DNA of 64,000 bases from Flavobacteriales bacterium (GCA_038259585.1 JBBSOQ010000010.1:30678-94677), one strand, 5' to 3'; counted from the stretch's first letter, positions 2,325 to 48,198 are shown. A program made the numbers and translations. The notes: generated by a model not told the origin, from the letters alone.

Positions 2325-2336
2325 TGATTAATGTCA
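2325..2336. promoter_or_regulatory. Fnr-like box TGAT-TAAT-GTCA between divergent kinase and TerB-like genes
   Basis: Centre 36.5 bp from + strand TAGATTTA (2360-2367) and 38.5 bp from - strand TACTTTTG (2292-2299). Confidence 0.7.
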
Positions 2337-2397
2337 TAAAATTGCCCGCAAAAACAATTTAGATTTACACCATTAGAAAACAAAAAGATATAGAATT

Positions 2398-2811
2398 ATG
2401 GGAGCCGTAGATAAGCCACAACTGCTTTTTTATCAAAAAATGGGAGAGCTCTTTTATGCCATTGCTGCGGCAGACAAAGTAGTGCGGAAGGAAGAATATG
2501 ACGAATTAAAAAAAATTGTTGCCAAGGAATGGAAAAATCTGGACGATTATGAAGATCCTTTTCACACCGATGCTGCGTACCAAATAGAAGTAGTTTTTGA
2601 TTGGTTTGATTATGAACAACTGGATGCAAATGATTGTTTTGAAAGCTTTGCTGATTATAAAACAGAATACCCCAATCTTTTTACCAAAGAACGAAATCAA
2701 CTTATTTGGAAAACCGCAAATGCAATTGCAACATCCTTTGCTGGTAAAAATAAAAGTGAAGTTATTATGCTTACCAAACTGAAAAATCTTTTGAAAGATA
2801 AAGTGGTTTAA
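2398..2811 (+). CDS. TerB-like/conserved hypothetical protein
   Basis: 137-aa ORF with AAADKVVRKEE motif resembling TerB-fold proteins. Confidence 0.5.
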   Translation: MGAVDKPQLLFYQKMGELFYAIAAADKVVRKEEYDELKKIVAKEWKNLDDYEDPFHTDAAYQIEVVFDWFDYEQLDANDCFESFADYKTEYPNLFTKERNQLIWKTANAIATSFAGKNKSEVIMLTKLKNLLKDKVV

Positions 2812-2873
2812 AAGATTATTTTCTCCCTGCTTAAAATTGTTTGCTTAATTTTATAAATCAATATCCAAAAACT

Positions 2874-3740
2874 ATGAAAATTCTTTTTCCTGCTCTTATT
2901 TTATTCATCTTTTTTGGTTGTAAAAACGATCCAAAAAAAGAAAGTATTGAAAATAACTCTGAAGTCAATGCTACAGAAATTGTAGATTCTTTAAAGGTTT
3001 CAAATAAAAATTTAGAAACTCAGCAAAGAACTCTTAACCTTAAACGGCAAGAACTTATAGAAAAGAAAGATGCAAAAGTAGAACTGGAAAAACTGCTAAT
3101 CTCAAAATCGTTTCTAAAAGAAGGCGATTGGTACACCCTCGATTTTAAATATCCATACCTCAACGAAAAAATAAAACCTCAATTCGAGAATTTCAACGAA
3201 TACATCAGTAAATATTATCTGGATGCTAAAGGCGTAGAAAAGCAGATTCTGGAAGAAAAACGACTGTGCGATTCTTTAGGAATTCCAAAGCAGAACGAAA
3301 AAAGATTGGTAGATTATAAAATCTACAATCTCAATGATAGACTCATTAGCGTTCTGTTTTACAAAGAGAATCATTACACTGGCGCAGCTCATGCGGCCTA
3401 TACTTTTGATTGTTTAAATTTTGATTTAGAACGAGCTGTATTTATGAACTACGAAGATTTTTTCAATAATGGTACTGAAGAAGAATTACGCGAAATTCTG
3501 AACACTCTTTTAAAAGAAAAAATCAATTCTGGGGAAATGTATTACGATTGCTGGGCTATCTCAGCAGATGACTTTTTCGATGCGAAAAATAATTTTGTTA
3601 TAAATGATAAAGTGGTGGAATTCTACTTTGACGATTGCGTCATTTGCCCGTCATACACTGGCACCTATTCCATTGAAATTCCCTTGGAAATGCTAATGCC
3701 TGTTTTAAGAAAATATAAAAAGAATCCATTACTTGGTTAA
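2874..3740 (+). CDS. Lipoprotein, DUF3298/RsiV-like
   Basis: Start moved to ATG 2874 (MKILFPALILFIFFGC lipobox); YTGAAH and C-terminal FYFD...SYTG motifs. Confidence 0.65.
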   Translation: MKILFPALILFIFFGCKNDPKKESIENNSEVNATEIVDSLKVSNKNLETQQRTLNLKRQELIEKKDAKVELEKLLISKSFLKEGDWYTLDFKYPYLNEKIKPQFENFNEYISKYYLDAKGVEKQILEEKRLCDSLGIPKQNEKRLVDYKIYNLNDRLISVLFYKENHYTGAAHAAYTFDCLNFDLERAVFMNYEDFFNNGTEEELREILNTLLKEKINSGEMYYDCWAISADDFFDAKNNFVINDKVVEFYFDDCVICPSYTGTYSIEIPLEMLMPVLRKYKKNPLLG

Positions 3741-3750
3741 AATCAATGCC

Positions 3751-4053
3751 ATGAAAAGCAATTTTAAAGACATAATAAATTCTGAGACTCCAGTATTGGT
3801 AGATTTCTTTGCTGATTGGTGTGGCCCTTGCAAAATGCTTGCGCCCATACTGAAACAAGTAAAGGATGAATTAGGAGACAGTGTGAAAATTGTAAAGATA
3901 GACGTAGATAAAAATCAGCCATTAGCAGCAGAGTTCCAAGTACGTGGTGTGCCGACGATGATTCTCTTTAAAAACGGAAAGCAACTTTGGCGACAAAGCG
4001 GGGTTTTGCAGAAAAACGATTTGGTGAATATTATCAATCAACATAAAAATTGA
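3751..4053 (+). CDS. trxA: Thioredoxin
   Basis: WCGPC active site; ATG at 3751. Confidence 0.95.
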   Translation: MKSNFKDIINSETPVLVDFFADWCGPCKMLAPILKQVKDELGDSVKIVKIDVDKNQPLAAEFQVRGVPTMILFKNGKQLWRQSGVLQKNDLVNIINQHKN

Positions 4054-5479: not shown

Positions 5480-6316
5480 CTATACTTTAAAAGTCATTAC
5501 CGGTAAATCTGAATGGTTTACCACATCTTCCCCAATACTTCCTGAGAAAAAGTGTGCCAAGCCTTGACGGCCTTGTGTTGGTAATGCAATTATATCTGCA
5601 TTGCTCACTTGACTGTAACCGAAAATTCCCGCTTCTACAGAATATTCGTTATATTGAATCACTGCATTCAAAGTTTCCAGTGGATTTGGCTCACCAGCAC
5701 TTTTCAAAAAGCTGAGAATTCGTTTTTCAATTTCACGAGTGCTTCGGAAATCGCCTGCAAGATTCACGTAAAGCATTTGCATATTTATTCTTAAAGTATC
5801 AAACAATTTTTGCGCACGCTTATAGGGGCCGATTGAGCTTTCCAAAAAATCACACGCAAATATTCCTAATTGCGGATTAAAATTCTCTGCGCGATGTTTA
5901 ATAACGAGTACTGGAATTTCAGAGGTTCTAACAACTTTTTCTGTGTTGCTTCCAACGAAAACTTCTTTTAATCCTGAGCTTCCGTGAGAACCCATTACAA
6001 TTAAATCTGCTTCAAACTCGCGAGCCACATCATTCAATTCACTGAAAATTTTATAATTATGTACGGCATCCGTAACCTTAATTCCTTCCAAATAGTCTTT
6101 GTCCAGAAATTCGATAAAACGTTTTTCAGCCAATTTCATATAATACATTGCTTCAAAAACTTCTTTGCTTTCATCGCGTGTTAAAACGGCATCACTAAGA
6201 CCCATCATATGAATTGCAACAATTTCAGCGTTTTGTTTTTTGGCAATATTTGCGGCAACTTCCAAAGCATACTCTGAATGTTTGGAAAAATCTACGGGAA
6301 CTAATATTTTTTTCAT
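5480..6316 (-). CDS. Universal stress protein (tandem Usp domains)
   Basis: MKKILVPVDFS start at 6316; VMGSHG..GSNTEKVVR motif; second domain ends DLPVMTF. Confidence 0.9.
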   Translation of the reverse strand: MKKILVPVDFSKHSEYALEVAANIAKKQNAEIVAIHMMGLSDAVLTRDESKEVFEAMYYMKLAEKRFIEFLDKDYLEGIKVTDAVHNYKIFSELNDVAREFEADLIVMGSHGSSGLKEVFVGSNTEKVVRTSEIPVLVIKHRAENFNPQLGIFACDFLESSIGPYKRAQKLFDTLRINMQMLYVNLAGDFRSTREIEKRILSFLKSAGEPNPLETLNAVIQYNEYSVEAGIFGYSQVSNADIIALPTQGRQGLAHFFSGSIGEDVVNHSDLPVMTFKV

Positions 6317-6326
6317 GATTTTAAGT

Positions 6327-6626
6327 TTAATGGGTTGTAAATTTTGCTTTTCGTTTTTTAAGCTGTTTTTCAATATCTGAGATAGTTTCTTTTGCGGCTG
6401 CTTCAAAAGTTTCTTTTGTTGAAGTAGCGAAAATTTTTGGACCTGGAAGACTAAGTTCCATTTCGCAAATATTGCCTTTTCCGTAATTATTGTTTTCAAG
6501 CTTAAAACTCACATCGGCTCTAATTAGCCATTCATACTTTTCTCCCAGTTTTTTGAGTTTTTTTTCTACAAACTCGTTCATGGCTTCGCTGGTGGGCATC
6601 TTTACATATTGTATGTTTATAGTCAT
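6327..6626 (-). CDS. hpf: Ribosome hibernation factor HPF/RaiA (short form)
   Basis: 99 aa with typical HPF pattern (EFVEKKLKKL...FEAAAKETISDIEKQLKKRK). Confidence 0.85.
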   Translation of the reverse strand: MTINIQYVKMPTSEAMNEFVEKKLKKLGEKYEWLIRADVSFKLENNNYGKGNICEMELSLPGPKIFATSTKETFEAAAKETISDIEKQLKKRKAKFTTH

Positions 6627-6683
6627 GATTTGTTAAATTGGTTTCTATTTTTCAAATATAGAATTTAATGAGATGTTTTAAAA

Positions 6684-6695
6684 TGACCAAAATCA
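6684..6695. promoter_or_regulatory. Fnr-like box TGAC-CAAA-ATCA upstream of hpf-usp
   Basis: Centre 36.5 bp from - strand TATATTTG (6653-6660). Confidence 0.75.
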
Positions 6696-7635: not shown

Positions 7636-9675
7636 TTAATTAATTGAATAAGAGATTGTTAAATAAAAGTTTCTACCCATCCGTGGAATGTTGTTCCAAT
7701 CGGTATAGGAAGAGTAATACGTGTCAAGAATATTTTCAATTCCAGCTTTTACAAAAAGGTCATTTTCATTTATGAAAAATCGCTTCCCGAAACTCGCCGA
7801 AAGCGTAGCATAAGCAGCACTCTTTGTTTCGCCATACCTAGGATTGAAATTGATTTGCTCTCCAGCGCCATCAACGGATAGCGATGCAGAAAATTGGTTT
7901 TTATAAAAATCGAGGGCACTTCTATATGAAATTGGACTGATTAATGGCAAGTTTTCTCTTTCGTCGTCAATTCCGCGGTGATAGGAAATATTACTCGTTA
8001 ATTTAAACGCGTTTGAAATAGTATACTTTCCCGAAAGCGTTGCGTTGAAAAGCTGCGCATACTCCAGATTGGTATAAATTTTCACGCCGTCGGCGCCAAT
8101 AGTCATCGTGCTAAGCGAATTATCCACTACTCCAATTATATAATTAAAAATGTGGAAATAATTTGCGCCAGCAGTAATTTCAAAAATTGGCTTTTTATAG
8201 GTCACAGAAATATTGGCATCTGCAGAGCTTTCCGTATTTAAGTCTGGATCACCAATGTAATCGTGGTTATCAAAACTATTAAACAAATAAAACCCATACC
8301 CTTCTGAAACCGAAGGCGCGCGTTCGCCGTAAGAAACGCCACCGTTAAAATGAAAATCATTCAACATTTTGTGATATTGCGCAGAAAAGCTTTTCAAGAA
8401 ACGAGTGTTTGTACGATCCATTTCAGGGTAAAAGATTTTCAAACTATTCAACCCAAAATCGTCCGCAACCGTGTTTGAATGATACGCCAAACGTGTTGAA
8501 AGTTTCAGCGAAGCTTTTTCAAAAGCAATATGGTCTTCGGCATAAAATCCAACATCCTTTGTTCGCACATCTGGCCAAGTAAGCATAAACATTAACGGTT
8601 CGTTACTATCAACCGGATACATCGTCATTTCCGCATAACTCTTGTTATAAAACCCATCCAACTTGAAGAAAAAATGATTCTTCTCTTTATTGAAATAGGC
8701 TTGCGTATAAAACCCAGCAGTTTCACTCCATCCCGGCATATCCATATGTATTGGCACATCCGGACGTTTTGTATCGTCCATCACGTGCTTAATATCACTG
8801 TAATACAATTTAGATTCCCAATTGGTGAAATTGCCCAATAAGGTATCTTGATTAAAGCTCACCGAGCTAATCACAGCACGCGCTAAAGACACATCCATCG
8901 TCAATGCGGGATAGCCTACATCATTCGCTTTGTCATATATTAAAGTGGCAGAAATGGATTTATCGGCAGCCAATTTATAGCCAGAATTAATAGAGAAGTT
9001 ATACTTTTCAAATTGTGAAAAAAGCACTTCTTTATCACCTCCAGCATTATAGTTATCAGCTTTCCGATAGATTGCATCTGTATTCAGATAAAATTTTTCA
9101 TCGGAATAGTTTAGTTCACCACCAAAAACACGCATTGCGTTATTGCTTTCAAAAGCACTTTCTACAGAACCGTTCCAGCCAGTCGGTTTAAAATTGCTTT
9201 TGTCCAGTTTCAAGTTGATGCCACCGCCAATAGTGTTTCCAAATGCTGCGCCCTGCTGACCGGAACCAATCTGTGCTTCCGAGAGATTTGACACGTCAAC
9301 ATAAGAAGTTATTGGGTCCATTTTATCTGTACACGCGCCAAAAATCTGCATACCGTCAATGGTTACCGCCAAACGTTCCGAAGCCATATCGTTCATTGTT
9401 GGTTCCCAAGCGTAGGCACCGCGTTTCACCATATTGATGCTAAGCGATGATTCTAAAAATTCGTCTAAAGTAGACAAGGGTTTTCGCTGCTTTTGATGAT
9501 CCAGTTGCTTACCCGCCGAAATTACAATCACCTCATTGAGATGGATTAATTTCAAGCTATCTACAGGCGTTTCTTGGGCGTATAATTTCGGCATAAAAGC
9601 GCCGCAAAATAGTACACTCCAAAGGCAGCCCATAAGCATTCCCCGTGAAGGAAACACACTTATAAATGCTTTCAT
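7636..9675 (-). CDS. TonB-dependent receptor, OprC/NosA-like copper type
   Basis: Plug motif GACTDKMDP (CxxxM) and barrel KHVMD (HxM); C-terminal GRNFYLTISYSIN. Confidence 0.85.
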   Translation of the reverse strand: MKAFISVFPSRGMLMGCLWSVLFCGAFMPKLYAQETPVDSLKLIHLNEVIVISAGKQLDHQKQRKPLSTLDEFLESSLSINMVKRGAYAWEPTMNDMASERLAVTIDGMQIFGACTDKMDPITSYVDVSNLSEAQIGSGQQGAAFGNTIGGGINLKLDKSNFKPTGWNGSVESAFESNNAMRVFGGELNYSDEKFYLNTDAIYRKADNYNAGGDKEVLFSQFEKYNFSINSGYKLAADKSISATLIYDKANDVGYPALTMDVSLARAVISSVSFNQDTLLGNFTNWESKLYYSDIKHVMDDTKRPDVPIHMDMPGWSETAGFYTQAYFNKEKNHFFFKLDGFYNKSYAEMTMYPVDSNEPLMFMLTWPDVRTKDVGFYAEDHIAFEKASLKLSTRLAYHSNTVADDFGLNSLKIFYPEMDRTNTRFLKSFSAQYHKMLNDFHFNGGVSYGERAPSVSEGYGFYLFNSFDNHDYIGDPDLNTESSADANISVTYKKPIFEITAGANYFHIFNYIIGVVDNSLSTMTIGADGVKIYTNLEYAQLFNATLSGKYTISNAFKLTSNISYHRGIDDERENLPLISPISYRSALDFYKNQFSASLSVDGAGEQINFNPRYGETKSAAYATLSASFGKRFFINENDLFVKAGIENILDTYYSSYTDWNNIPRMGRNFYLTISYSIN

Positions 9676-9757: not shown

Positions 9758-10135
9758 TTATCCTAACTGTGGCGGATGAAGGATTTCTAAAGTGAAAAGA
9801 GAAGAATTCAAATTTGGCTTGTAGCCAATATTTTTAAAGGAAGTAATTTCAGTTTCTGAAGCAAAAGTATATTCTGAAATATTTTCTGAAATAATAAACT
9901 GGGGAATCTCCGTTTTTAAAGTTTTGCCACTGAATGGATTTTTATCTTCGGCACCAGCTTCTTTTGCCAGTTCTTTGGTTAAATGACATTTTCCGTTGCA
10001 CTGCATTTCTGGTTTGTCTTTGTTTTCACAAAGTACATTTACTATGTAATCATAATTCACAACATACTCAACCACAGGCCACATTGGTTTGGTGAGCATT
10101 ATTAAGGATGCGACTATGAGAATTACATTTTTCAC
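9758..10135 (-). CDS. Putative Cys-containing leader/arrest peptide upstream of the copper TBDR
   Basis: GTG start; hydrophobic N-terminus; CENKDKPEMQCNGKCH; ends ILHPPQLG*. Confidence 0.7.
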   Translation of the reverse strand: MKNVILIVASLIMLTKPMWPVVEYVVNYDYIVNVLCENKDKPEMQCNGKCHLTKELAKEAGAEDKNPFSGKTLKTEIPQFIISENISEYTFASETEITSFKNIGYKPNLNSSLFTLEILHPPQLG

Positions 10136-10170
10136 AAGACAAATATACTATCTATAAGATGTTTTAAGAA

Positions 10171-10182
10171 TGATATTTGTCA
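10171..10182. promoter_or_regulatory. Fnr-like box TGAT-ATTT-GTCA upstream of leader-TBDR operon
   Basis: Centre 36.5 bp from - strand TATATTTG (10140-10147). Confidence 0.75.
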
Positions 10183-17039: not shown

Positions 17040-17612
17040 TCATTCATTAGAGCCGCGTACAATTCTTGAAATTATTCCTTTTTGATCTGTAAATTCTGCA
17101 ATTAATATTCCGCCAATGTGTAGTACAATAAAAGCTATTAGATAATAAATACCAAGTACATGTATTTCTTCCATTGGTTCTTTCAAAGTCTTTGGGCCCC
17201 ATACTATTATAAGCCCCGTAACTAAAGAAATTACAACACAAATATAAAAAATGACGTATGCCCATTTCTGGAATTTCTGTTTTACAGTTAAGTTTTTAGC
17301 AAATGGACTTTGAAACTTCATACTTCCGAAAAAAGGAAGTATAAAGCGCAAACTGAACAAACCAGTTAAAACATATCCTAAATAAATATGCCAATCCCAC
17401 ATAGGTTTCCGTATCTGTTTGGCTAAAACAATTAATTGCTCGCTAGAGAGTGATTGATCTGTGCTACTTAGATAATTCTGAATAATATCTGCCACATTTT
17501 CTTTATTCATCCAAGTCAATCTCAGAAAAATAGTAATTAGTAAAAGCAGAAAAGTTACCGCTATTGTCCAGTGGATAATCCGATAAATTTTTGAATAGTT
17601 TACAGTTTCCAT
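17040..17612 (-). CDS. Di-heme cytochrome b (b561/CybB-like)
   Basis: Four TM helices with His ligands RIIHW, WHIYLG, EIHVLG, LHIGG. Confidence 0.85.
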   Translation of the reverse strand: METVNYSKIYRIIHWTIAVTFLLLLITIFLRLTWMNKENVADIIQNYLSSTDQSLSSEQLIVLAKQIRKPMWDWHIYLGYVLTGLFSLRFILPFFGSMKFQSPFAKNLTVKQKFQKWAYVIFYICVVISLVTGLIIVWGPKTLKEPMEEIHVLGIYYLIAFIVLHIGGILIAEFTDQKGIISRIVRGSNE

Positions 17613-17619
17613 TGTGTTT

Positions 17620-18009
17620 CTATAAACTTTTAATGACCTTGGTCAATCTTTTTTGAACATCTTTCGCAATATCAGCCAAAGAATTATTTTCTACAGCCAT
17701 CATTGAGGCCGCTGGATCTACTGCTGAAACTTCTATAATTCCAGGTTCACGTTCTTGAACTATTACGTTGCAAGGAAGCATCGTCCCAATTTTGTTTTCG
17801 GCTTGCAGGGCTTGATACGCCATTTGTGGATTGCACGCACCTAGAATGGTATAATTATAAAAATCTGCGTCCAACTTCTTTTTTAAGGTGGCCTTAAGAT
17901 CTATTTCGGTCAACACCCCGAAACCTTCTAATTTTAAAGCTGCGGTTGTTTTTTCAATAGCATCTTTAAAAGTTGTGTTTTTTAATGTTGTAGTGATGTA
18001 ATAACTCAT
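17620..18009 (-). CDS. DUF302 domain protein
   Basis: GFGVLTEID, ILGACNP, LPCNV motifs. Confidence 0.9.
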   Translation of the reverse strand: MSYYITTTLKNTTFKDAIEKTTAALKLEGFGVLTEIDLKATLKKKLDADFYNYTILGACNPQMAYQALQAENKIGTMLPCNVIVQEREPGIIEVSAVDPAASMMAVENNSLADIAKDVQKRLTKVIKSL

Positions 18010-29383: not shown

Positions 29384-30841
29384 TTATTCAGGAATTAAAT
29401 ACCAAAATGGTTTCATTTTAGCTTTATATATAAAAGCATAGTGCAGCGCAAGTTTTAGCCAATGACCTGCCAAACCGATTTCGCCAAAAGTCTTGCTTAG
29501 CTTTCTTCCCATAGTGTCTGGGTATTTTATGTAATCAGGGACAATTGGGAACGTAGTTATGCTTATACCACTGCCTTTGGTCATTCCAAAACCTGCGGAA
29601 GCAATACAAGCAGCGCCCATATTGCCCATAGAACCTTTGTGGCGAAGTGATTCTTTATTATTTTTTATACTATCAATAATATTGTCTGCAACTAATTTTG
29701 CCGTAATACCCGAGGGCATTCCCGTTCTTGGCGGGGCAGGAAAGATTTCTGTTCCGTTCGGACTTTTACGGGGTTTAGAGATACTGTGTGGTGGCGCAAA
29801 AGCTATTCCCGGTGCAAAAATATTTTTATAATTCGGGTTTTGATAGGTCTCTGGCCAGTCTTGTACGGTCCATTCTTCATAGGGTTTGGGTGTATAATCT
29901 GCGTCAACTATCATAAAGCCTTTAAATAGTTTCTCGGTGATGTCTTGCTTGTTTTTATCGAAAGCTTTAAACCCGTGTCCCGAAAAGGAAGGGATAAGCA
30001 TCGCAAAATCATATTCAATGTTTTTGTGCTCCCCGTTCAGCGTTTCATAATGGGCAAGACCTTCTTCAATTTTAGTAACCCCTGCCCCAAGAATCCAATC
30101 TATGTCGCGATCTTCAAAAACCATCTCTACCATTTCATTGGATTTCATACTATTACTTCCATAGCTTAGCAGCATCCCGTCCATTCCGAAATCGCCCAGT
30201 TTATATTCATTGGAAATCCACGTAATTTTGGCTTTGTCACGAACTTTTTGTCTGCGAAGTTCTTGCTCAACATTTAAAATATATTCAAAAGCTGCGCCTT
30301 GGCAAGTTGCTTTTGCGTGGCCAGTGCCAATAACAATTCGTGCTTCCTTTCCCTGTTTCATTTCTTCAATTAAGGCTTGTAAACCTTGATAGGCGTGCTC
30401 TGCGTGCGTATAAGTACATACGGAATACGTTTTGTTAGTTCCGGGATTTAAACCTTCGGTAGCTTCAAAATTAAGTTTGGGACCCGTGGCATTTATAAGA
30501 TAATCGTACGTAATTTTTTCAGTTTCGCCTCTTTTTTCTTCGGAAACGTATTCAGCCATTACGAATGGTTTTTCTGTTTCATTATCGCCTTCGGGAAAAA
30601 AAGAAGTCACCTTGGCTTGTTTGAACCCGATACCTTTCTTTTTGTATAAAGGCGCCAACGGAAAAAGTATTTGCTTGGATTTCATTCGGCCAATGCCAAC
30701 CCAAATATTGGAAGGAATCCATTGATACTTACTGTTGGGCGAAACCACAACAACTTCGTGGGTTTTGTCTAGTTTTCTGCGAAGATGGGAAGCAGCTACA
30801 TGACCTGAAATTCCAGCACCTAATATTACAATTTTTGACAT
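29384..30841 (-). CDS. sqr: Sulfide:quinone oxidoreductase-like flavoprotein
   Basis: GAGISG FAD motif; Cys in SVCT, ATCQGAAFEY and ACIASAG; PRTGM motif. Confidence 0.75.
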   Translation of the reverse strand: MSKIVILGAGISGHVAASHLRRKLDKTHEVVVVSPNSKYQWIPSNIWVGIGRMKSKQILFPLAPLYKKKGIGFKQAKVTSFFPEGDNETEKPFVMAEYVSEEKRGETEKITYDYLINATGPKLNFEATEGLNPGTNKTYSVCTYTHAEHAYQGLQALIEEMKQGKEARIVIGTGHAKATCQGAAFEYILNVEQELRRQKVRDKAKITWISNEYKLGDFGMDGMLLSYGSNSMKSNEMVEMVFEDRDIDWILGAGVTKIEEGLAHYETLNGEHKNIEYDFAMLIPSFSGHGFKAFDKNKQDITEKLFKGFMIVDADYTPKPYEEWTVQDWPETYQNPNYKNIFAPGIAFAPPHSISKPRKSPNGTEIFPAPPRTGMPSGITAKLVADNIIDSIKNNKESLRHKGSMGNMGAACIASAGFGMTKGSGISITTFPIVPDYIKYPDTMGRKLSKTFGEIGLAGHWLKLALHYAFIYKAKMKPFWYLIPE

Positions 30842-30892
30842 TTCTTAAAGATTTTAAATGTCTAAATTACTTCACATAAAAGAAGCCACAAA

Positions 30893-30904
30893 TGATATTA
30901 ATCA
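30893..30904. promoter_or_regulatory. Fnr-like box TGAT-ATTA-ATCA (proximal sqr promoter)
   Basis: Centre 36.5 bp from - strand TAATTTAG (30862-30869). Confidence 0.7.
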
Positions 30905-38751: not shown

Positions 38752-39384
38752 TTAAAGTGAAATTATCTTAATGCTATTTCTATAAAGTTCTATTTTGCCC
38801 ATAGATTCCAGCTTTTTCAACAAGCGCGAAACCACAACCCGAGAGGTGTGCAATTCGTATGCAATTTCTTGGTGCGTTGAATTTATAGTATCGCTTTTAT
38901 TTACTTTTTGTTTATTCTGAAGATATTTAACCAAACGCTCATCCATATTCAAAAAAGCAATACTATCTATGGTTTCGAGCATTTCCGTGAGGCGTTCGTG
39001 ATAGCTTTGAAATACAAAATCGCGCCAGCTTTTATATTTTCCCGTCCATTCCTCCATTTTTTGAATAGGAATCATAATAAGCATGGTATCCATTTCTGCT
39101 ATCGCCCTGATTTCACTTTTGGTTTGACCCAAACAACATGTCATTGTCATGGCGCAAGTATCGCCGCGTTCCAAAAAATAGAGCAATAATTCATCGCCAT
39201 TATCATCTTCCCTTAAAATTTTTATTGCCCCAGAAATTAGCAGTGGCATGGACCGCACATAATCGCCAATTTCTATAAGTTTTTCACCTTCTTTCACTTC
39301 CTTTAAAGTTCCTACTTGATTGATTTCGTCAATAAGGGCATCTTCAAAAATTGCGGCGTAATTTTCTTTTAAATACGTAAGCAT
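38752..39384 (-). CDS. Crp/Fnr-family transcriptional regulator
   Basis: cNMP-like beta-barrel with TCAMTMTCC; HTH helix HTSRVVVSRLL. Confidence 0.93.
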   Translation of the reverse strand: MLTYLKENYAAIFEDALIDEINQVGTLKEVKEGEKLIEIGDYVRSMPLLISGAIKILREDDNGDELLLYFLERGDTCAMTMTCCLGQTKSEIRAIAEMDTMLIMIPIQKMEEWTGKYKSWRDFVFQSYHERLTEMLETIDSIAFLNMDERLVKYLQNKQKVNKSDTINSTHQEIAYELHTSRVVVSRLLKKLESMGKIELYRNSIKIISL

Positions 39385-39432: not shown

Positions 39433-40398
39433 TCACTTTTCTTTTGAGTCTTTCTTTTTCTGTTTTTCCAATTTTCTAAAATATCCGCGGAAAAAGAAGT
39501 TGTGTTGTAAGGCCTCCATATTTTGATTCAGTTTTTCAGACGCTTCTTTTATTTGAATCATTGTGGAATCCAACTCCTTTACAAAACTTTCATTCTGGGT
39601 GATATGATTGAGAGCTCCTTTTCCAGATTTTATTTCCCTTAAATAATCATCTAGATTTTTGGTAATTGCATTAATATCATCGCTGGATTTTTCTAGATTA
39701 CTAAAAACAGTTCTAATCTGAGTTGCGGTGGCAGTATCGCTCAAAATTACGGCCGCGGCACTTTCGTCATAATTTACTTTTGAAATAATAGTATTGATTT
39801 TACCCATAGCCAACCCTGCTCCTTCCGAGGTTTTCTTTAGTTCTAAAATTGTTTGGTAAATATTCTGCGCTAAAATTGTATCACTGATTAAGACCCCAAT
39901 AGTTCCTTTTCCTTCAAGAATTTGATGGGTAATTTTTAAAAGATCTGTACTTGTTTTATCTAATGTAGCGAGCATATCGTCCATCCCCACTTTACTGACG
40001 GATTGAATTACGTCTCCGGTAACAACACCCGCACCCTGCACATCATTTCCGGGAGTGATATTTACCACCATACTTCCAACCAAACCATCCGAACTGATAG
40101 AGGCCACAGCATCTTTTTTTATGAAATATGAAGCCTCTTCTTCCACCGTCATTTCAATAATAATCTTACCCACTTCTTTCATTTCTATGCCAGTTACCGT
40201 TCCCACATTAATGCCAGAGTAACGGACATTGTTTCCTAATTGTAGTCCGTTTACATTGTCAAAAACTGCATATACTTCTATATTTTTGGTGAAAATATGT
40301 TGTCGTGAGCCTATTAAATAAAGGGCGCCCACGAGAATAATAGTTCCTACGATCACAAAGATTCCAACTCTTATTTTTTGTGAATTTGATTTTCCCAT
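39433..40398 (-). CDS. MlaD/MCE family protein
   Basis: Start moved to MGKSNSQ; NGLQLGNNVRYSGINVG, SSDGLVG motifs. Confidence 0.88.
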   Translation of the reverse strand: MGKSNSQKIRVGIFVIVGTIILVGALYLIGSRQHIFTKNIEVYAVFDNVNGLQLGNNVRYSGINVGTVTGIEMKEVGKIIIEMTVEEEASYFIKKDAVASISSDGLVGSMVVNITPGNDVQGAGVVTGDVIQSVSKVGMDDMLATLDKTSTDLLKITHQILEGKGTIGVLISDTILAQNIYQTILELKKTSEGAGLAMGKINTIISKVNYDESAAAVILSDTATATQIRTVFSNLEKSSDDINAITKNLDDYLREIKSGKGALNHITQNESFVKELDSTMIQIKEASEKLNQNMEALQHNFFFRGYFRKLEKQKKKDSKEK

Positions 40399-40402
40399 AA
40401 AA

Positions 40403-41155
40403 TTAATTTTTAAAAAATGCTCTAGTTTGGGGATCATTCGAATTTGAAAGTTCCTCAAAAGTACCTTCGGCATAATTGGTTCCATCCACCAACAATATCA
40501 TCCGATCTGAAATAACCCGTGCACAATCTACGTCGTGCGTAATGATAAGAGAAGATGTGTTGTATTCTTTTTGAATGCTTCGCATAAGTTGAATAATTTC
40601 GTTTGCAGTAATAGGATCCAAACCTGTAGTTGGTTCATCATACATAATAATCTTCGGCTTTAAAATCAATGCCCGAGCTAATGCCACCCTGCGCTGCATT
40701 CCACCAGAAAGTTCCGAAGGCATCAAATCGATAGCATTTAAAAGCCCCACACTTTTGAGCGCTTCCTTTACCGATTGTTCAGTACTGTGGAAATCTTCTA
40801 GTTTATCCTTATGACGCCGAAGTGGAAATTCTAAATTTTCACGCACGGTCATAGAATCGTATAAGGCACTTCCCTGAAAAAGAAAACCGATTTCTGTACG
40901 TAAAAAATCCAATTCCTGCTGGCCCATAGTAATGATATCTTGATCTTTAATTGTGATACTTCCGCTATCTGGTTGAATCAAACCTACAATACACTTAACC
41001 ATTACAGATTTCCCCGAACCGGATTTCCCCATAATCACTAAGTTTTCCCCTTCATATAATTTCATACTAAATCCTTTGAGCACTTGGTTGTCGCCAAAAC
41101 TCTTTTTAATATTTTTCAGTTCAAGAACTGGTTTTTTATTTGTTTCAGAATTCAT
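40403..41155 (-). CDS. ABC transporter ATP-binding protein (MlaF-like)
   Basis: GKSGSGKS, LSGGMQRR, YDEPTTGLDP. Confidence 0.92.
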   Translation of the reverse strand: MNSETNKKPVLELKNIKKSFGDNQVLKGFSMKLYEGENLVIMGKSGSGKSVMVKCIVGLIQPDSGSITIKDQDIITMGQQELDFLRTEIGFLFQGSALYDSMTVRENLEFPLRRHKDKLEDFHSTEQSVKEALKSVGLLNAIDLMPSELSGGMQRRVALARALILKPKIIMYDEPTTGLDPITANEIIQLMRSIQKEYNTSSLIITHDVDCARVISDRMILLVDGTNYAEGTFEELSNSNDPQTRAFFKN

Positions 41156-41937
41156 TATGTAGTGAAAAATATATCGGTTACAAAAACGGCAATAAAGTCA
41201 ATTATAAACAGCAACATGGAGGCATAAACCACCGCCGAGTTTGATGCCTCTCCCACCCCAACGGTTCCAGTGGCGCAATTATATCCTTTGTAAGTACCCA
41301 CTAGGCCAATAGCAAAACCAAAGAAAAAAGTTTTGACGGTTGCGGGAAAAACGTCACTAAATTTCAAAGCGTCAAAAACTTGATTGAAATAAAGCGTGTA
41401 TGAAACACCTCCTTTTAAGTTTTCAATGATTGCAGAACCAATTAGAGCAACGGCATCGCCCAATATTACTAATAATGGCAACATAAGTGTTACCGCTAAA
41501 ATTCTAGTAACTACCAAATATTTAAAGGGATTGGTTCCCGAAACTTCCATCGCATCAATTTGTTCCGTCACTCTCATGGAACCTAGCTCGGCACCTATTC
41601 CTGAACCAATTCTTCCCGCACAGATTAAAGCGATAATTACAGGCCCTATTTCTCTAATTATGGAAAGACTAATCATTGAAGCCATCCAGGATTCCGCTCC
41701 AAATTGCATTAAGGTAGGCCGAGATTGAAGGGTAAAAACAAGACCTAATATAAAGCCCGTAACCACAACCAGAAATAATGAACGGTTTCCCATATTATAA
41801 CACTGCCTGAGCAATTCCCTAAACTCGAAAGGCCTGCTGAACAATTCCTTAAAAAAACGACTGGCAAATAAAGTCATATCGCCTATTTCGGTGAAAAACG
41901 ACTTTGCTCGGGTTATGATAGCGTTTGCTTTATTCAT
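41155..41937 (-). CDS. MlaE family ABC permease
   Basis: REIGPV, AGRIGSGIGAELGSMRVTEQIDA. Confidence 0.93.
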   Translation of the reverse strand: MNKANAIITRAKSFFTEIGDMTLFASRFFKELFSRPFEFRELLRQCYNMGNRSLFLVVVTGFILGLVFTLQSRPTLMQFGAESWMASMISLSIIREIGPVIIALICAGRIGSGIGAELGSMRVTEQIDAMEVSGTNPFKYLVVTRILAVTLMLPLLVILGDAVALIGSAIIENLKGGVSYTLYFNQVFDALKFSDVFPATVKTFFFGFAIGLVGTYKGYNCATGTVGVGEASNSAVVYASMLLFIIDFIAVFVTDIFFTT

Positions 41938-41985
41938 TTAGAATTGGGAAAAAGCAAATGTATTTGAGAATCTAGCGAATAACTA

Positions 41986-41997
41986 TGATATACATCA
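41986..41997. promoter_or_regulatory. Fnr-like box TGAT-ATAC-ATCA upstream of mlaE
   Basis: Centre 36.5 bp from - strand TACATTTG (41955-41962). Confidence 0.75.
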
Positions 41998-42136: not shown

Positions 42137-42148
42137 TGACCTATGTCA
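42137..42148. promoter_or_regulatory. Fnr-like box TGAC-CTAT-GTCA upstream of the patatin gene
   Basis: Centre 36.5 bp from + strand GAAATTTG (42172-42179). Confidence 0.65.
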
Positions 42149-42196
42149 GGGTTTGATACCTTTAAATTTTAGAAATTTGTTATATAATTTGATGCA

Positions 42197-42970
42197 ATGA
42201 CAAATATTGGATTAGTTCTTTCAGGTGGCGGAGCACGCGGCGCGGCGCATATTGGCGCATTAAAAGCATTTGAAGAGTACGGTATTTCACCTACACATGT
42301 TTCCGGAACAAGTGTTGGCTCCATTGTAGGCGCACTGTATTCGGCTGGTGTTCATTGGTCTGAAATATTAAAATTCTTTAAAACCATCTCTATTTTTCAC
42401 ACAAAAAGATTTGCCTTTAATAAACCAGGCTTTTTAGATTCCGAAAAGTTTTATGACGACCTTAAAGTGTTTTTTCCAAGAGACAACTTTGACGTTTTAG
42501 AAAAATCTCTATTCATAACTGCAACAAACGTGATATCGGGAAATTTAAAAATTTTTAGCAAAGGGCAGCTTATAAAACCGGTTATAGCTTCAGCTTCTTT
42601 TCCCGGATTTTTCACTCCTACTGAAATTAATGGTTCTTACTATATTGATGGAGGAATTCTAAATAACTTCCCCGTGGAACCTCTTAAAAAACACTGTGAT
42701 AAAATTATTGGGGTCTATATTAATTCGTTGAAGAAGATTAGTATTACGGACTTGAACCATTCCTATAATGTTGCTGACAGAGCGCTAAAAATAAGAGCGG
42801 CCTCAGATTCTCTAAAAAAATTCCCAGAATGTGATCTCATAATTTCGCCAAGAGATCTGGGGAATTATGCCATTTTTGGAATGAGCAAAATAGATGCAAT
42901 TTTTGAATTGGGCTATTCTGCCGCAGTTGAAGCTTTAAAAGAAAATGAAAATGATTTTAAAAACTATTAA
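42197..42970 (+). CDS. Patatin-like phospholipase
   Basis: GGGARG, GTSVG, DGG motifs. Confidence 0.93.
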   Translation: MTNIGLVLSGGGARGAAHIGALKAFEEYGISPTHVSGTSVGSIVGALYSAGVHWSEILKFFKTISIFHTKRFAFNKPGFLDSEKFYDDLKVFFPRDNFDVLEKSLFITATNVISGNLKIFSKGQLIKPVIASASFPGFFTPTEINGSYYIDGGILNNFPVEPLKKHCDKIIGVYINSLKKISITDLNHSYNVADRALKIRAASDSLKKFPECDLIISPRDLGNYAIFGMSKIDAIFELGYSAAVEALKENENDFKNY

Positions 42971-43844: not shown

Positions 43845-43856
43845 TGATAAAAATCA
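43845..43856. promoter_or_regulatory. Fnr-like box TGAT-AAAA-ATCA upstream of the L,D-transpeptidase gene
   Basis: Centre 36.5 bp from + strand TATCATTG (43880-43887); overlaps the ORF-track ATG, implying the real start is 43904. Confidence 0.65.
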
Positions 43857-43903
43857 TACCATTTGGACAATTAACTAACTATCATTGGAATTCAATAAAA
43901 CCG

Positions 43904-44851
43904 ATGAGAAATATACTATTCTTTCTTTCTTCTTTTATACTTATAGGTTGCTTAAATAGTAATAAGGCTGGTATTGAAGGGAAATCAACTAACGAAACTG
44001 TTCCAGTTAAAACTGATACTTTAACGCAAGATATTTCTAGAAAACAAATTGAATTAATAGTCAATAAAGACGTTCCGATTCGCTCTTACTTTAAATGGAT
44101 GGACAGTATTGTATCGGAACACAACCAAACCCACAGTTATTCTATTGATGAGTATATTATTGTCCACAACAACAAATGGATTATGGACACTTTGGCACAT
44201 ACAGATTATTACTACCTAAAGGATAAAGGGATTTTTAATGAAGACTCCCAATCACTAATAGCCTTAAAAAAAAATCAAGTTTTAATCATTCCAGATTCAC
44301 TTGAAACCCAAAACTTGAGAACTCAGCTATTTGATACTTATTTAGAAATCAACATACCAGAATTTAGACTTAGAATATTTCAAGATGGGAAAGAAATTTA
44401 TAAGTTTCCCGTGAGAGTTGGAAAAAACGGTAAAAAATATATGGAGATGGCTAAAGCCCAAGTGGATATGCGAACAAAGATAGGAACTGGCGAAATTATT
44501 CGTGTAAATAAAAAGCCTGCATTTGCAAATCCTACGGATAATCATAAATACAAAAAAACAACACGCGATGATGGTAAAAGGACTGCCCTGCCCGCTATTC
44601 CGTGGCTGGAGCCTTCTATAAATGGCCGCAGTGTGGGGCAACTTATTCACCCTACCACAAACATTGCTACATTGGGAAAGGTTTATTCAAATGGCTGTAT
44701 TGGGTTAAGAGAATCTGACGCTTGGATAGTATATTATTTTGCACCGCTAGGTACAAAAGTGGTTATTAAATATGAATTGGAAGGTAAGAATGACGCAGGG
44801 GAAACTGTTGAATTTGAAGACATTTATTCCAGATTTAAGAATAAAAAATAA
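43904..44851 (+). CDS. L,D-transpeptidase (YkuD) lipoprotein
   Basis: MRNILFFLSSFILIGC lipobox; INIPEFRL, IHPT...SNGCIGL catalytic motif. Confidence 0.85.
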   Translation: MRNILFFLSSFILIGCLNSNKAGIEGKSTNETVPVKTDTLTQDISRKQIELIVNKDVPIRSYFKWMDSIVSEHNQTHSYSIDEYIIVHNNKWIMDTLAHTDYYYLKDKGIFNEDSQSLIALKKNQVLIIPDSLETQNLRTQLFDTYLEINIPEFRLRIFQDGKEIYKFPVRVGKNGKKYMEMAKAQVDMRTKIGTGEIIRVNKKPAFANPTDNHKYKKTTRDDGKRTALPAIPWLEPSINGRSVGQLIHPTTNIATLGKVYSNGCIGLRESDAWIVYYFAPLGTKVVIKYELEGKNDAGETVEFEDIYSRFKNKK

Positions 44852-44925: not shown

Positions 44926-45504
44926 TCAAAAATCCCAAGCCAACCCAATACCGAAAGAGATATAATTAAGCTTCAAGTTCGTTGAAACATTTGAAATCTC
45001 AAGATCTCTGGAAAGAGAACGATACCGGAGCATTGGTCGAAACGAAAGATTTGGGGCAAACTCATAGTCAACGCCAGCGGCAACTTGCCAGCCAAAGCCA
45101 TGACCAGTATCTGCAGTAATATCATTCGCGGTATTTTCGAATTCAATATGATTGTAAACCGCGCCTGCCTGTGCTATATATGAAAATACAGAGGTGCCAA
45201 TGGGATGCATAATCTGAAAACCGAAGGTATATCCAGTTTCGTCTAAATTATTGTTTTCCTTTGAAATTCTATCATCACCTTTCAATTGGTTCTGACCCCA
45301 ACCTGCATAAAAAGCTAAATGAGGCATAATTTTATATGCGCCCGTAATTTCAAATCCAAAGCCAACCTTTGCTTCAGTATTTCCCACATCATTAGTAGGA
45401 AAACTTAGACCAGGTCTAAATTCCACCGTCCATTTTTCCTGTGCCTTCACAGTAAATGAAATTAGTAGGATAATTATAGCAAGCCAAAAACTGTAGTTCT
45501 TCAT
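44926..45504 (-). CDS. Outer-membrane beta-barrel protein (OmpA-like TM/porin family)
   Basis: Signal peptide, alternating aromatic strands, C-terminal Phe. Confidence 0.8.
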   Translation of the reverse strand: MKNYSFWLAIIILLISFTVKAQEKWTVEFRPGLSFPTNDVGNTEAKVGFGFEITGAYKIMPHLAFYAGWGQNQLKGDDRISKENNNLDETGYTFGFQIMHPIGTSVFSYIAQAGAVYNHIEFENTANDITADTGHGFGWQVAAGVDYEFAPNLSFRPMLRYRSLSRDLEISNVSTNLKLNYISFGIGLAWDF

Positions 45505-45562
45505 AATGTTGGATTCTAATTAATCACTATCCAAAATTACCTATGAAATAAATTTTTTAATA

Positions 45563-45574
45563 TGACTAAAATCA
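45563..45574. promoter_or_regulatory. Fnr-like box TGAC-TAAA-ATCA upstream of the OMP gene
   Basis: Centre 36.5 bp from - strand TAATTTTG (45532-45539). Confidence 0.75.
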
Positions 45575-45607
45575 GTTTAATACTGTTTATCAATATTTTA
45601 AAGTATT

Positions 45608-48130
45608 TTATTTATTAGAATTGGGGTTTTTCGTGATTTGTAAACGTTTCCGCCATTTTACAATTTCAAACCAAATTACACTTAACACACCTATTCCAAT
45701 GCTAACACCAATCTGGTTTAAAGTAAGTCTTTCAAATCCAAAGAATTTAGTGAATCCAGGTACAAAAAGAAGCAACAAAGTAATCCCAACAGTAATACTC
45801 ACGATAATTGGCACCAAGGTATTTTTATATTTAAAAGTGGTGAAAACAGAATAGATGAAAGAACGGTTTACGAAAGTCAACACTATATTTGCGGTTATGA
45901 GTGCGGTAAAAACCATGGTTCTTGTTATTGATTCATTTGCGCCATTATTTACAGCAATTTGATAAACGGAAAGCATACCCACTGTAATTGCCAGTCCTTG
46001 AATTATACTTGTGAAAAGTTCCTGCCAATTAAAAAATGTACTCGAAAATGGCCTTGGTTTTTGAAGCATGGAATCTTTTTCCAGCGGTTCGTTTTCGTAG
46101 ACAATTGAGCAGGTTGGCCCCATTATCAATTCCAACAAAATTACGTGAACGGGTGTAAAAATATTCGGATATACCCAACCCAAAACCAAAGGGAAAAACA
46201 CCGTCAGTATAATCGGTATATGGATTGAAATAATATATTGAATGGCTTTTTTAAGATTGAAATAGATTTTTCTACCCATAGCCACAGCTTCCACCATTTT
46301 GGAAAGGTCATCATCCACAAGTATCAGCGAAGCGGATTGTTTGGCGATCTCCGTCCCTTTTTTCCCCATTGCCACACCAATATTTGCGGCTTTTAGCGCG
46401 GGACCATCATTTACGCCATCTCCCGTCATTGCCACTATATGTCCTTGGGCTTTAAGAGCATTTATTATTTTAAGTTTTGCTTCGGGAAACATCCGGGCGA
46501 AAATGTTTTTTTCTGAAGTGATTTTTTGCAGTTCAGAGTCATTCAAGGAAATAATATCGTCTCCAGATACCACTTCATCAGATCCTTTGAAGTTTACTTT
46601 TTTAGCAATGGCTGCAGTAGTTTCAGCAATATCGCCAGTGATTATTTTTACAGCAATCCCAGCATTATAAAAATCCTGAAACACTTTTGAAATGTTCTGT
46701 TTGGGCGGATCGTAAAAAGCGACCAATCCTTTGAATTCAAAACTGAAATCCTGTTGCTTCTTTGGCCAATCTGTTCCTTCAAATTTTGAAATCCCCACTC
46801 CCAAAACACGATATCCTTCTGATGCCAAAAAGATAATTTTATGTTTTAAATTTTCCTTTTCGCTATCACTTAAATCTGATACCGCCATCATTGCTTCGGG
46901 CGCGCCTTTGGCAGCAATAATTCGATTGCCTTCAGCATTTTCAAAAATATGGGTCATCATCGGGGGTTTGCCACCCAATGGATATTCATGAACCATTTTG
47001 AAATTGGGCCTTTCATCATTTTCGGCAATCTTTTCATAGAAATTGTGTAGCGATTGCTCCATCGTATCAAATGGAATAGGTTCACTGGCCCACACTGCTG
47101 TGGTTATAAGCACTTTTTCACTGTTAGAAAGTGTTTCTTCCACCGAATTAATCTTATCCGTTTCTAAAGTGTAAATCTTATCTAGACGCATCTTATTCTC
47201 TGTAATCGTACCCGTTTTGTCCACACAAATTACAGTCGCGCTGCCCAATGACTCTACGGTTTTCATTTGTTTTACAATTACTCCCAGATTCATCAATCTC
47301 CAAGCGCCAATGGCCATAAATGTTGTAAAAGCCACAGGAATTTCCTCTGGCAAAACGCTCATTGCAAGGGTAAGTGCTTTTAAAAGACTGTCTAAAACGT
47401 CTAACGAATTATAGTAATTGATGCCCCAAACCAATAAAAAAATAACCGCTCCCGCGATTACCATCTTTTTTACGAAATTGTTTATTTGAAGTTCAAGCGT
47501 AGATTTTTCAGAAGAAATATCTTCAATACTTTTGCCAATTTTTCCAACTTTTGTCTGGTTGCCTACTGCAGAAATTTTAGCAATAGCGAGCCCTCCCGCC
47601 ACTTGCGTTCCCATATAAATTCGGTTGTCCTCAGAAAAAGCATCTTTCTCTGAAGAAAAGGATTCTCCCGTTAAAATGGATTCGTTTACCGAGAAATCGT
47701 TGGAATGTACAATGGTTCCATCAGCAACGATTGTTGAACCCTCTTCAACCATCAAAAAGTCACCAACAACAACATCTTTACTCATTATTTCAATGACTTC
47801 CCCATTGCGGATTACCTTACAATGTGGCTGTGAAAGTTCTTTGAGCTTTTCAAGTGCGTTATGAGTTTTGGCGTCTTGATAGAGTGATATTGCAGCAACC
47901 AAAAGAATTGCGGCTGCGAGAAAAATTCCATCACCCGTATTTCCTGTGAAAAAATATAGCGTAGCGGCAACCAGCAATAAAATAACCATTGGTTCCTTTG
48001 CCAAGCCTTTTATAGCTTCCAGAAAATGGTTTTTCTTTTTTGACTCAAGAATATTACTGCCAAACTTTTTCCGCAGAGCTAAGACTTCGGAATCTGTCAG
48101 CCCTTTAATGTTGAAGTTAGTTATGGGCAT
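45608..48130 (-). CDS. Cation-transporting P-type ATPase (type II-like)
   Basis: LTGES, PEEIP, DKTGT, MTGDGVND. Confidence 0.93.
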   Translation of the reverse strand: MPITNFNIKGLTDSEVLALRKKFGSNILESKKKNHFLEAIKGLAKEPMVILLLVAATLYFFTGNTGDGIFLAAAILLVAAISLYQDAKTHNALEKLKELSQPHCKVIRNGEVIEIMSKDVVVGDFLMVEEGSTIVADGTIVHSNDFSVNESILTGESFSSEKDAFSEDNRIYMGTQVAGGLAIAKISAVGNQTKVGKIGKSIEDISSEKSTLELQINNFVKKMVIAGAVIFLLVWGINYYNSLDVLDSLLKALTLAMSVLPEEIPVAFTTFMAIGAWRLMNLGVIVKQMKTVESLGSATVICVDKTGTITENKMRLDKIYTLETDKINSVEETLSNSEKVLITTAVWASEPIPFDTMEQSLHNFYEKIAENDERPNFKMVHEYPLGGKPPMMTHIFENAEGNRIIAAKGAPEAMMAVSDLSDSEKENLKHKIIFLASEGYRVLGVGISKFEGTDWPKKQQDFSFEFKGLVAFYDPPKQNISKVFQDFYNAGIAVKIITGDIAETTAAIAKKVNFKGSDEVVSGDDIISLNDSELQKITSEKNIFARMFPEAKLKIINALKAQGHIVAMTGDGVNDGPALKAANIGVAMGKKGTEIAKQSASLILVDDDLSKMVEAVAMGRKIYFNLKKAIQYIISIHIPIILTVFFPLVLGWVYPNIFTPVHVILLELIMGPTCSIVYENEPLEKDSMLQKPRPFSSTFFNWQELFTSIIQGLAITVGMLSVYQIAVNNGANESITRTMVFTALITANIVLTFVNRSFIYSVFTTFKYKNTLVPIIVSITVGITLLLLFVPGFTKFFGFERLTLNQIGVSIGIGVLSVIWFEIVKWRKRLQITKNPNSNK

Positions 48131-48186
48131 TTATAGAAAACATTTTATTTATCTATAAATGTATGAATTGTTAACTCATTGATTTA

Positions 48187-48198
48187 TGACAACTATCA
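48187..48198. promoter_or_regulatory. Fnr-like box TGAC-AACT-ATCA upstream of the P-type ATPase gene
   Basis: Centre 36.5 bp from - strand TACATTTA (48156-48163). Confidence 0.7.

Follow-up and report, generated by a model that had tools for sequence, protein, structure and literature searches.

The window analyzed here is a stretch of 64,000 nucleotides (nt) from contig C10 (positions 30678-94677) of a 3.14-Mb, 43-contig Flavobacteriales bacterium assembly (GCA_038259585.1, JBBSOQ010000010.1) whose host genus is Aequorivita. At its start lie two minus-strand genes, one for a fusion of a receiver domain with a Crp/Fnr module (hereafter REC-Crp) and one for a soluble histidine kinase that ends 1 nt before the REC-Crp start codon. 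Between positions 2,325 and 48,198, nine palindromic boxes of the form TGAY-N4-RTCA precede -7 promoter boxes of the Bacteroidota type (TAnnTTTG) at one fixed distance. These boxes are probably best explained as part of a class II regulon of REC-Crp that would be controlled by the kinase, a putative haem-PAS sensor, at low oxygen.

4-1053, minus strand: REC-Crp/Fnr fusion response regulator, 349 amino acids (aa); proposed activator
1055-2287, minus strand: soluble PAS-HisKA-HATPase histidine kinase (Pfam PAS, HisKA and HATPase_c); proposed O2 sensor

The receiver-Crp regulator and the adjoining kinase

Genes were labelled from Pfam and NCBIfam profile matches judged against family cut-offs. 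REC-Crp matches Response_reg (PF00072, 101 bits, 1e-29), cNMP_binding (7e-16) and HTH_Crp_2 (2.5e-13), all above cut-off, and belongs to the Crp/Fnr family by its scores for PF00027 (58.4 bits, cut-off 27.5), PF13545 (50.2, cut-off 27) and PF00325 (21.6, cut-off 21). The receiver retains the canonical residues D9, D10, D52, S82 and K104; with this intact pocket and the adjoining kinase gene, the protein has the features of a response regulator, and phosphotransfer from the kinase is predicted. Its recognition helix, IATESLIR, carries the E-x3-R pair with which CRP and FNR read TGA half-sites, and by analogy the same residues would contact the TGA half-sites of the boxes. Both the sequence and the Pfam matches show a receiver domain at the N-terminus, where FNR proper has a Cys cluster; since that cluster is absent, REC-Crp is not FNR proper.

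Residues 12-133 of the kinase, which form its PAS domain, match 14 PDB entries, 13 of which, including all the best, are haem-PAS O2 sensors, among them E. coli DosP and the FixL proteins of Bradyrhizobium and Sinorhizobium (E-values 1e-14 to 1e-18, the best ones 1e-16 to 1e-18). His67 of the kinase aligns with the DosP haem ligand His77 and Arg87 with Arg97, and this pair, together with the HisKA and HATPase_c domains, gives the protein the features of a FixL-type kinase with predicted haem binding. We compared 80 REC-Crp loci from Aequorivita, Aquimarina, Dokdonia, Bizionia, Mesonia, Ulvibacter, Sediminicola and metagenome-assembled genomes. In every one of the 80 the kinase gene lies directly upstream of the REC-Crp gene; 65 of the kinases keep the His/Arg pair.

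Promoter geometry

A sequence-only reading of the window had listed boxes at 2325, 6684, 10171, 30893, 41986, 42137, 43845, 45563 and 48187 and had claimed that each palindrome is centred 36.5 bp from the last base of its -7 box. All nine are present, and in nine of nine the box lies 23 nt upstream of the -7 box, which reproduces the claimed distance. The same reading had allowed one or two mismatches in some of the -7 boxes: all nine are indeed of the TAnnTTTG type, and none needs two mismatches, being exact at 6684, 10171, 41986 and 45563 and having one mismatch at 2325 (plus side), 30893, 42137, 43845 and 48187.

2325-2336, both strands: shared bidirectional box TGATTAATGTCA; plus side, TAGATTTA at 2360-2367, 23 nt from the box, leading to a 137-aa gene at 2398; minus side, exact TACTTTTG at 2292-2299, 25 nt from the box, leading to the kinase/REC-Crp operon
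6653-6695, minus strand: hpf-usp promoter; box TGATTTTGGTCA at 6684-6695, 23 nt, TATATTTG at 6653-6660; hpf at 6327-6626 and a tandem-Usp gene at 5480-6499
10140-10182, minus strand: promoter of a TonB-receptor-like operon; box TGACAAATATCA at 10171-10182, 23 nt, TATATTTG at 10140-10147; a 125-aa open reading frame (ORF), a TonB-receptor-like gene at 7636-9675 and a YtkA-domain gene
30862-30904, minus strand: promoter of an SQR-like FAD oxidoreductase; box TGATTAATATCA at 30893-30904, 23 nt, TAATTTAG at 30862-30869; gene at 29384-30841
41955-41997, minus strand: mlaE-mlaF-mlaD promoter; box TGATGTATATCA at 41986-41997, 23 nt, TACATTTG at 41955-41962; genes at 39433-41937
42137-42179, plus strand: promoter of a patatin-like phospholipase; box TGACCTATGTCA at 42137-42148, 23 nt, GAAATTTG at 42172-42179; gene at 42197-42970
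43845-43887, plus strand: promoter of a YkuD L,D-transpeptidase; box TGATAAAAATCA at 43845-43856, 23 nt, TATCATTG at 43880-43887
45532-45574, minus strand: promoter of an OMP beta-barrel gene; box TGATTTTAGTCA at 45563-45574, 23 nt, TAATTTTG at 45532-45539; gene at 44926-45504
48156-48198, minus strand: promoter of an 840-aa type II/III cation P-type ATPase; box TGATAGTTGTCA at 48187-48198, 23 nt, TACATTTA at 48156-48163; gene at 45608-48130

Mapped transcription start sites of Flavobacterium psychrophilum place the TAnnTTTG box at -12 to -5 (PMC9723704), in agreement with the earlier assumption that its last base is -5, and the palindrome would accordingly be centred at about -41.5. The box itself would cover about -47 to -36 and overlap the region of the -33 element. 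Across the whole genome, 152 TGAY-N4-RTCA boxes occur. A spacer of 23 nt to an exact -7 box is found at 11 of them, while every other spacer length occurs 0-2 times; when one mismatch is allowed in the -7 box (the palindrome being kept exact), the spacer of 23 nt rises to 26 boxes against 1-10, with a mean of about 3.5, for the other lengths. The enrichment of the spacing thus persists genome-wide. Alignment gives the consensus taaaTGAy-N4-rTCATatttt ... TAnnTTTG, and only 6 of the 26 promoters have a TTG near -33, the remaining 20 lacking it, as expected for activator-dependent promoters. The start codon lies 15-31 nt past the -7 box at most of these 26 promoters and 4-30 nt from it at the nine in the window.

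The box also emerges when no motif is assumed. We scanned upstream of all 4447 exact -7 boxes for every palindrome built of two 3-nt halves (64 half-sites, gaps of 0-10 and spacers of 5-59), and TGA-N6-TCA at spacer 23 ranks first, with 13 occurrences observed against 1.26 (Poisson p = 1e-9). The second rank is taken by ATT-N8-AAT at spacer 24 (21 vs 6.2, p = 2e-6), which may be an AT-rich UP-like feature. In the window, TGAYNNNNRTCA matches 11 times against 4.2 expected from dinucleotide-preserving shuffles, a count of at least 11 being reached in 1 of 100 shuffles. Two exact palindromes there lack the promoter geometry and lie in or at coding sequence: 659-670 falls within the REC-Crp gene, in the linker between receiver and barrel, and 17634-17645 is 21 nt before an ATG at 17612; both may be there by chance or may be sites of a non-class II kind. 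The 151 Flavobacteriaceae genomes used for family comparison contain 1181 copies of TGAYN4RTCA-N23-TAnnTTTG, whereas the reversed control yields 26. Chance is rejected as the origin of the sites by the spacer histogram together with the shuffles, this control and the unbiased scan.

Descent of the promoters from a repeated cassette or mobile repeat is likewise rejected. The 23-nt spacers of the 26 promoters are mutually unrelated: their mean identity is 0.35, that of random sequence 0.27, and the difference is due mostly to a conserved T-ATTTT immediately past the box. The promoters therefore did not arise as copies of a single DNA cassette. At spacer 23, palindromes carrying one mismatch are no more frequent genome-wide than at other spacers (5 cases), which indicates that the box is strictly specified, and we did not widen the regulon with degenerate sites.

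The bidirectional box at 2325 deserves separate description. The earlier claim that the kinase operon is served from this box at 38.5 bp holds, the exact TACTTTTG lying at 25 nt on the other strand, and both arrangements are kept in Aequorivita loci. Among the 78 loci for which the region upstream of the kinase is available, 42 have a site facing the kinase operon and 53 have a 23-nt site facing the divergent gene. On the kinase side (window 2287-2336, minus strand), the 25-nt spacer is unusually conserved over its full length within Aequorivita. If this promoter is real, the kinase/REC-Crp mRNA would be leaderless.

Translation starts at two further promoters are affected by the geometry. At 10171, the GTG start of the 125-aa ORF lies only 4 nt past the -7 box (window 10135-10147), which leaves either a leaderless mRNA with a GTG start, an unusual arrangement, or an internal ATG as the true start. 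At 43845, the longest L,D-transpeptidase ORF begins at ATG 43844, inside the regulatory box; by the promoter geometry, the real start is probably the ATG at 43904, giving a protein of 315 aa.

Pfam bears out the labels that the sequence-only reading had given to hpf-usp, mlaEFD, patatin, the YkuD L,D-transpeptidase and the OMP beta-barrel, and its P-type ATPase is confirmed as one of the type II/III cation class, not a copper pump. Two labels hold in part: the gene called sqr does match SQR-like FAD oxidoreductases, weakly (67 bits, cut-off 525), and the supposed copper TonB-dependent receptor does match TonB receptors, again weakly (110 bits, cut-off 472). The description of the 137-aa product as TerB-like finds no Pfam or NCBIfam support (E-values up to 1) and is dropped.

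Extent of the regulon and its link to the regulator subfamily

Although the nine sites are real, the proposed nine-site regulon proves too small: it comprises about 25 promoters and extends upstream on C10 and onto contig C20. Of 25 distinct sites, 15 lie on C10 (11996-78864), 8 on C20 (27974-62144), and one each on C1 and C5. C20 followed by C10 matches, in gene order and orientation, a single contig of the congener Aequorivita aquimaris D-24 (G037; genome 99% complete), so that 23 of the 25 sites fall within about 115 kb, or 3.6% of the genome. This island spans C20:27974-63566 and C10:1-78864, the window contributing up to position 48198, and also encodes the kinase-regulator switch. In G138, a genome of a different genus whose regulator is 70% identical, 8 of the 9 exact sites are no further than 73 kb from the regulator gene.

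The first genes behind the boxes include hemN, ccoS (cbb3 oxidase assembly) and RIC/YtfE, each above its NCBIfam cut-off (the equivalog cut-off in the case of hemN). A heavy-metal/Cu P-type ATPase of 804 aa is another, as are pfkA and the genes for a CoA-transferase, two small c-type cytochromes, a thioredoxin-reductase-like flavoprotein and a TetR regulator. The set further holds at least four tandem-Usp genes and HPF with a Usp gene behind it. In the window it also has mlaEFD, patatin, the YkuD L,D-transpeptidase, the OMP beta-barrel, the cation ATPase, the SQR-like oxidoreductase and the TonB-receptor-like operon. Taken together, the target set looks like a hypoxia regulon. In F. psychrophilum, hypoxia co-induces the cbb3 operon, hemN and a monohaem cytochrome c (PMC9723704, supplement), which fits the core target set.

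Conservation in relatives, which the earlier reading had put forward as a check, is found. G037 keeps the box and the 23-nt spacing at 17 targets, where drift is seen in the N4, the Y/R positions and the spacer sequence; within the window the kept sites include those at 6684, 30893, 41986, 42137, 45563 and 48187. The 10171 target has no orthologue in the compared regions of G037 and G138, nor has the 43845 target in the compared region of G037. G138 keeps the box at 10 targets, namely three Usp genes, hpf (the 6684 site), the 137-aa gene, hemN, ccoS, the Cu-ATPase and both cytochromes, and does not keep it before the OMP gene (45563), RIC or the CoA-transferase. The comparison of the two genomes points to a core regulon of respiration plus Usp/HPF, of which the envelope genes of the window are a genus-level extension. 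The two arms of the island differ in their half-sites: TGAC/GTCA makes up 10 of 16 on C20, which carries the respiratory genes, and 9 of 30 on C10, which carries the stress genes. This bias may be the remnant of two ancestral regulons, one of a stand-alone FNR-like protein and one of the fusion, now served by one protein.

The genome encodes only four Crp-type helix-turn-helix proteins, and REC-Crp is the sole member of its subfamily. The protein at 38752-39384 has an NtcA-like helix (TSRVVVSR) without E-x3-R and fits a GTA-N8-TAC motif instead. TAAC-N4-GTTA, the core of GTAAC-N4-GTTAC, occurs three times genome-wide at a 23-nt spacer before exact -7 boxes, and there seems to be a second regulon on the same register that would go with this NtcA-like protein. 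The Crp protein on C12 (helix QSLSR) also lacks E-x3-R and was set aside.

Full-length REC-Crp orthologues occur in 72 of the 151 genomes. Searching with the Crp half also retrieves a stand-alone paralogue of about 225 aa, 31-36% identical, which begins MGKCEQC..., contains further cysteines and has the helix TATESAIR, so that an ATESxIR helix is common to both proteins. From these features the paralogue looks like the family's Fe-S FNR equivalent, reading the same box. Site numbers follow the two proteins: the 23 genomes with neither have a mean of 0.87 sites, close to background, the 56 with the stand-alone protein only 6.8, the 25 with the fusion only 8.3, and the 47 with both 12.2. All fusion-only genomes, to which this genome and G037 belong, carry sites (range 2-16). 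In addition, an exact-geometry site driving a Usp gene lies no more than 200 nt past the REC-Crp stop codon at 77 of the 80 loci.

The earlier assignment of the sites to the protein at 4-1053 is thereby supported, since three mutually independent lines agree, namely the recognition helix, the phyletic pattern and the positional conservation; judged from these, the nine-site regulon probably belongs to REC-Crp. One correction is needed: by their occurrence, motif and geometry are evidently not REC-Crp-specific, being used in other genera by the Cys-rich stand-alone FNR-like paralogue.

Two observations concern the relatives of REC-Crp. At the stand-alone fnr-like gene itself (loci L095-L099), a TGAT-N4-(A/G)TCA box lies about 9-10 nt before a TATTTTTA box in four of five cases, which suggests negative autoregulation by analogy with E. 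coli fnr. Some genomes also encode a second REC-Crp paralogue, about 43% identical and often within 20 kb of the first (G041:C22:149709-150761, G029:C4:87381, G054:C97:32065, G083:C42:188141 and others), so that some species have two receiver-Crp regulators besides the stand-alone one.

Proposed mechanism, alternatives and meaning

We infer that REC-Crp binds the boxes, that it activates rather than represses, that phosphorylation controls it and that oxygen is the signal. When O2 falls, the kinase in its deoxy-haem form would phosphorylate the receiver at Asp52. The active REC-Crp dimer would bind aTGAY-N4-RTCAt through its ATESLIR helix, centred at -41.5, and would recruit sigma-A RNA polymerase in class II fashion at Bacteroidota -33/-7 promoters that mostly lack the -33 TTG. 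The kinase/REC-Crp operon would itself belong to the regulon, and the shared box at 2325 would make for positive feedback on it. On the sequence evidence assembled here, we consider this the probable explanation of the sites.

Several observations pull in the other direction. In genomes without the fusion, box and geometry recur at up to 15 sites, so that the regulator cannot be told from the motif alone, and a second Crp protein of this genome, on contig C3 (211 aa, helix RVETVIR), also has E-x3-R. The cNMP-like domain of REC-Crp lacks the Arg-Ser/Thr phosphate-binding pair and is probably a dimerisation or allosteric module, not a nucleotide sensor; a second ligand may nevertheless enter through it. 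The kinase-operon box lies at 25 nt instead of 23, and only 4 nt separate TACTTTTG from the kinase ATG at 2287, which makes this promoter atypical. Finally, His67 and Arg87 are absent from 15 of the 80 kinase orthologues.

This last point bears on the alternative that survives best, although we consider it unlikely, namely that the PAS kinase responds not to oxygen but to NO, CO, redox state or a metabolite, in which case the regulon would serve as a general stasis or stress programme. Haem-PAS domains such as those of DosP and FixL also respond to NO, CO and redox state, and many targets (Usp, HPF, RIC, Mla and OMP) are generic stress genes, RIC being an NO/iron-sulfur repair protein. Set against this are the identity of the PAS matches as O2 sensors in 13 of 14 cases with both key residues aligned, the presence of hemN, ccoS and the Cu-ATPase, which are hallmark low-O2 targets, and the situation in Aequorivita, where the kinase/REC-Crp pair stands in place of the Cys-rich FNR-like protein that other genera use at this box.

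It is quite improbable that the class II sites are real and another regulator binds them, either the C3 protein or an unrecognised factor, with REC-Crp merely a co-regulated member of the island. The helix of the C3 protein is compatible with TGA half-sites, and in other genera the stand-alone FNR-like paralogue evidently serves the same box. However, the phyletic pattern of the C3 protein is wrong, and we reject it as the regulator: its orthologues occur in only about 32 of 151 genomes, are present in G053 (no sites) and G137 (one site) and are absent from most site-rich genomes, e.g. G007, G023, G001 and G015, and contig C3 carries none of the 25 sites. The sites present in every fusion-only genome likewise argue against a different regulator.

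The remaining alternative, a repressor or anti-activator occluding the -33 region in place of a class II activator, has very little in its favour: the box overlaps that region, and the autorepression-like box 9-10 nt from the -7-like box of the stand-alone fnr-like genes in other genera indicates that the subfamily can probably repress, but repression needs no exact helical register, in contrast to the near-exclusive use of 23 nt, a -33 TTG is missing from most of the promoters, and hemN, ccoS, the Cu-ATPase and Usp genes are targets that Fnr/FixK/Anr-type activators induce in other bacteria. Induction of Usp by Anr is also stated in PMC3721108, and genes of this set appear as hypoxia-induced in F. 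psychrophilum (PMC9723704, supplement).

The regulation by REC-Crp that we prefer resembles the FixL-FixJ-FixK system of rhizobia and Caulobacter in its haem-PAS kinase with aligned His and Arg, in the predicted phosphotransfer to a receiver, and in a Crp/Fnr-type output that would act on a TGA-N6-TCA-type palindrome before hemN, cbb3 assembly and Cu-ATPase (fixI-like) genes. It differs in that receiver and Crp/Fnr module form one polypeptide, so that the LuxR-type output of FixJ and the transcriptional relay to fixK are absent; in addition, the box is aTGAY-N4-RTCAt, not TTGA-N6-TCAA, the promoters are of the -33/-7 type, and the kinase is soluble with a single PAS domain. With E. coli FNR and Pseudomonas aeruginosa Anr it shares a TGA-N6-TCA core, here predicted to lie near -41.5 over the upstream promoter element, an E-x3-R helix, and the low-oxygen targets hemN, cbb3 oxidase genes and Usp genes. 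Unlike these proteins, REC-Crp has no N-terminal Cys cluster and takes its input through a receiver, and its box is flanked by A/T (ATGAY...RTCAT) where the FNR site reads TTGAT...ATCAA; the true FNR equivalent may be the Cys-rich stand-alone paralogue of other Flavobacteriaceae, which Aequorivita lacks.

Gene content offers two further parallels. In Mycobacterium tuberculosis, the haem-sensor kinases DosS/DosT act on DosR, a response regulator that under hypoxia directly switches on many Usp genes together with a factor of the ribosome-hibernation type. The haem-sensor input and the Usp and hibernation-factor content are alike, whereas DosR has a LuxR/NarL-type output and another box, and its sensors have GAF, not PAS, domains. 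The lxa locus of Burkholderia cenocepacia comprises 50 genes with six Usp proteins, carries TGA-N6-TCA at 17 intergenic points and is induced at low oxygen (PMC3721108); it is likewise a clustered regulon in an aerobe, comparable with the roughly 23 boxes in about 115 kb, the at least four tandem-Usp genes, the HPF and the cytochromes found here. Phylum, promoter type and regulator architecture differ, and the lxa regulator was not identified in PMC3721108, whereas here the regulator-kinase pair lies inside the cluster. By these analogies the system is functionally an FNR/FixK/Anr-type low-oxygen regulon, in which a FixJ-like receiver is fused directly to a FixK-like module.

A full-text literature search returned no description of REC-Crp regulators, flavobacterial FNR sites or a flavobacterial FixL, although such absence is not proof. 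The regulator candidate described here has an architecture that we found in no paper, and its box is defined with single-base-pair positional precision. The model compresses the three-step FixL-FixJ-FixK relay into two proteins. A broader proposal, for and against which we find the case evenly balanced, is that in Aequorivita the fusion has fully replaced the Fe-S FNR-type regulator and runs the FNR targets (hemN, cbb3 assembly and Cu-ATPase) and the Usp/HPF survival programme from one haem-based two-component input, with more than 90% of the regulon in one island of about 115 kb that encodes the switch.

The Flavobacteriaceae are important degraders in marine and fresh waters, and fish pathogens are among them. 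To our knowledge, very few regulons have been defined in this family, and little is known of how activators act at -33/-7 sigma-A promoters. The regulon predicts the genes by which these 'strict aerobes' endure oxygen shortage in particles, biofilms and sediments, and its rigid geometry is directly usable for family-wide regulon prediction, with 1181 sites in the 151 genomes. On the broader proposal, many aerobic Flavobacteriaceae would have in REC-Crp their master hypoxia switch, and its sites would supply the first class II activator geometry to be defined for the -33/-7 promoter of Bacteroidota.

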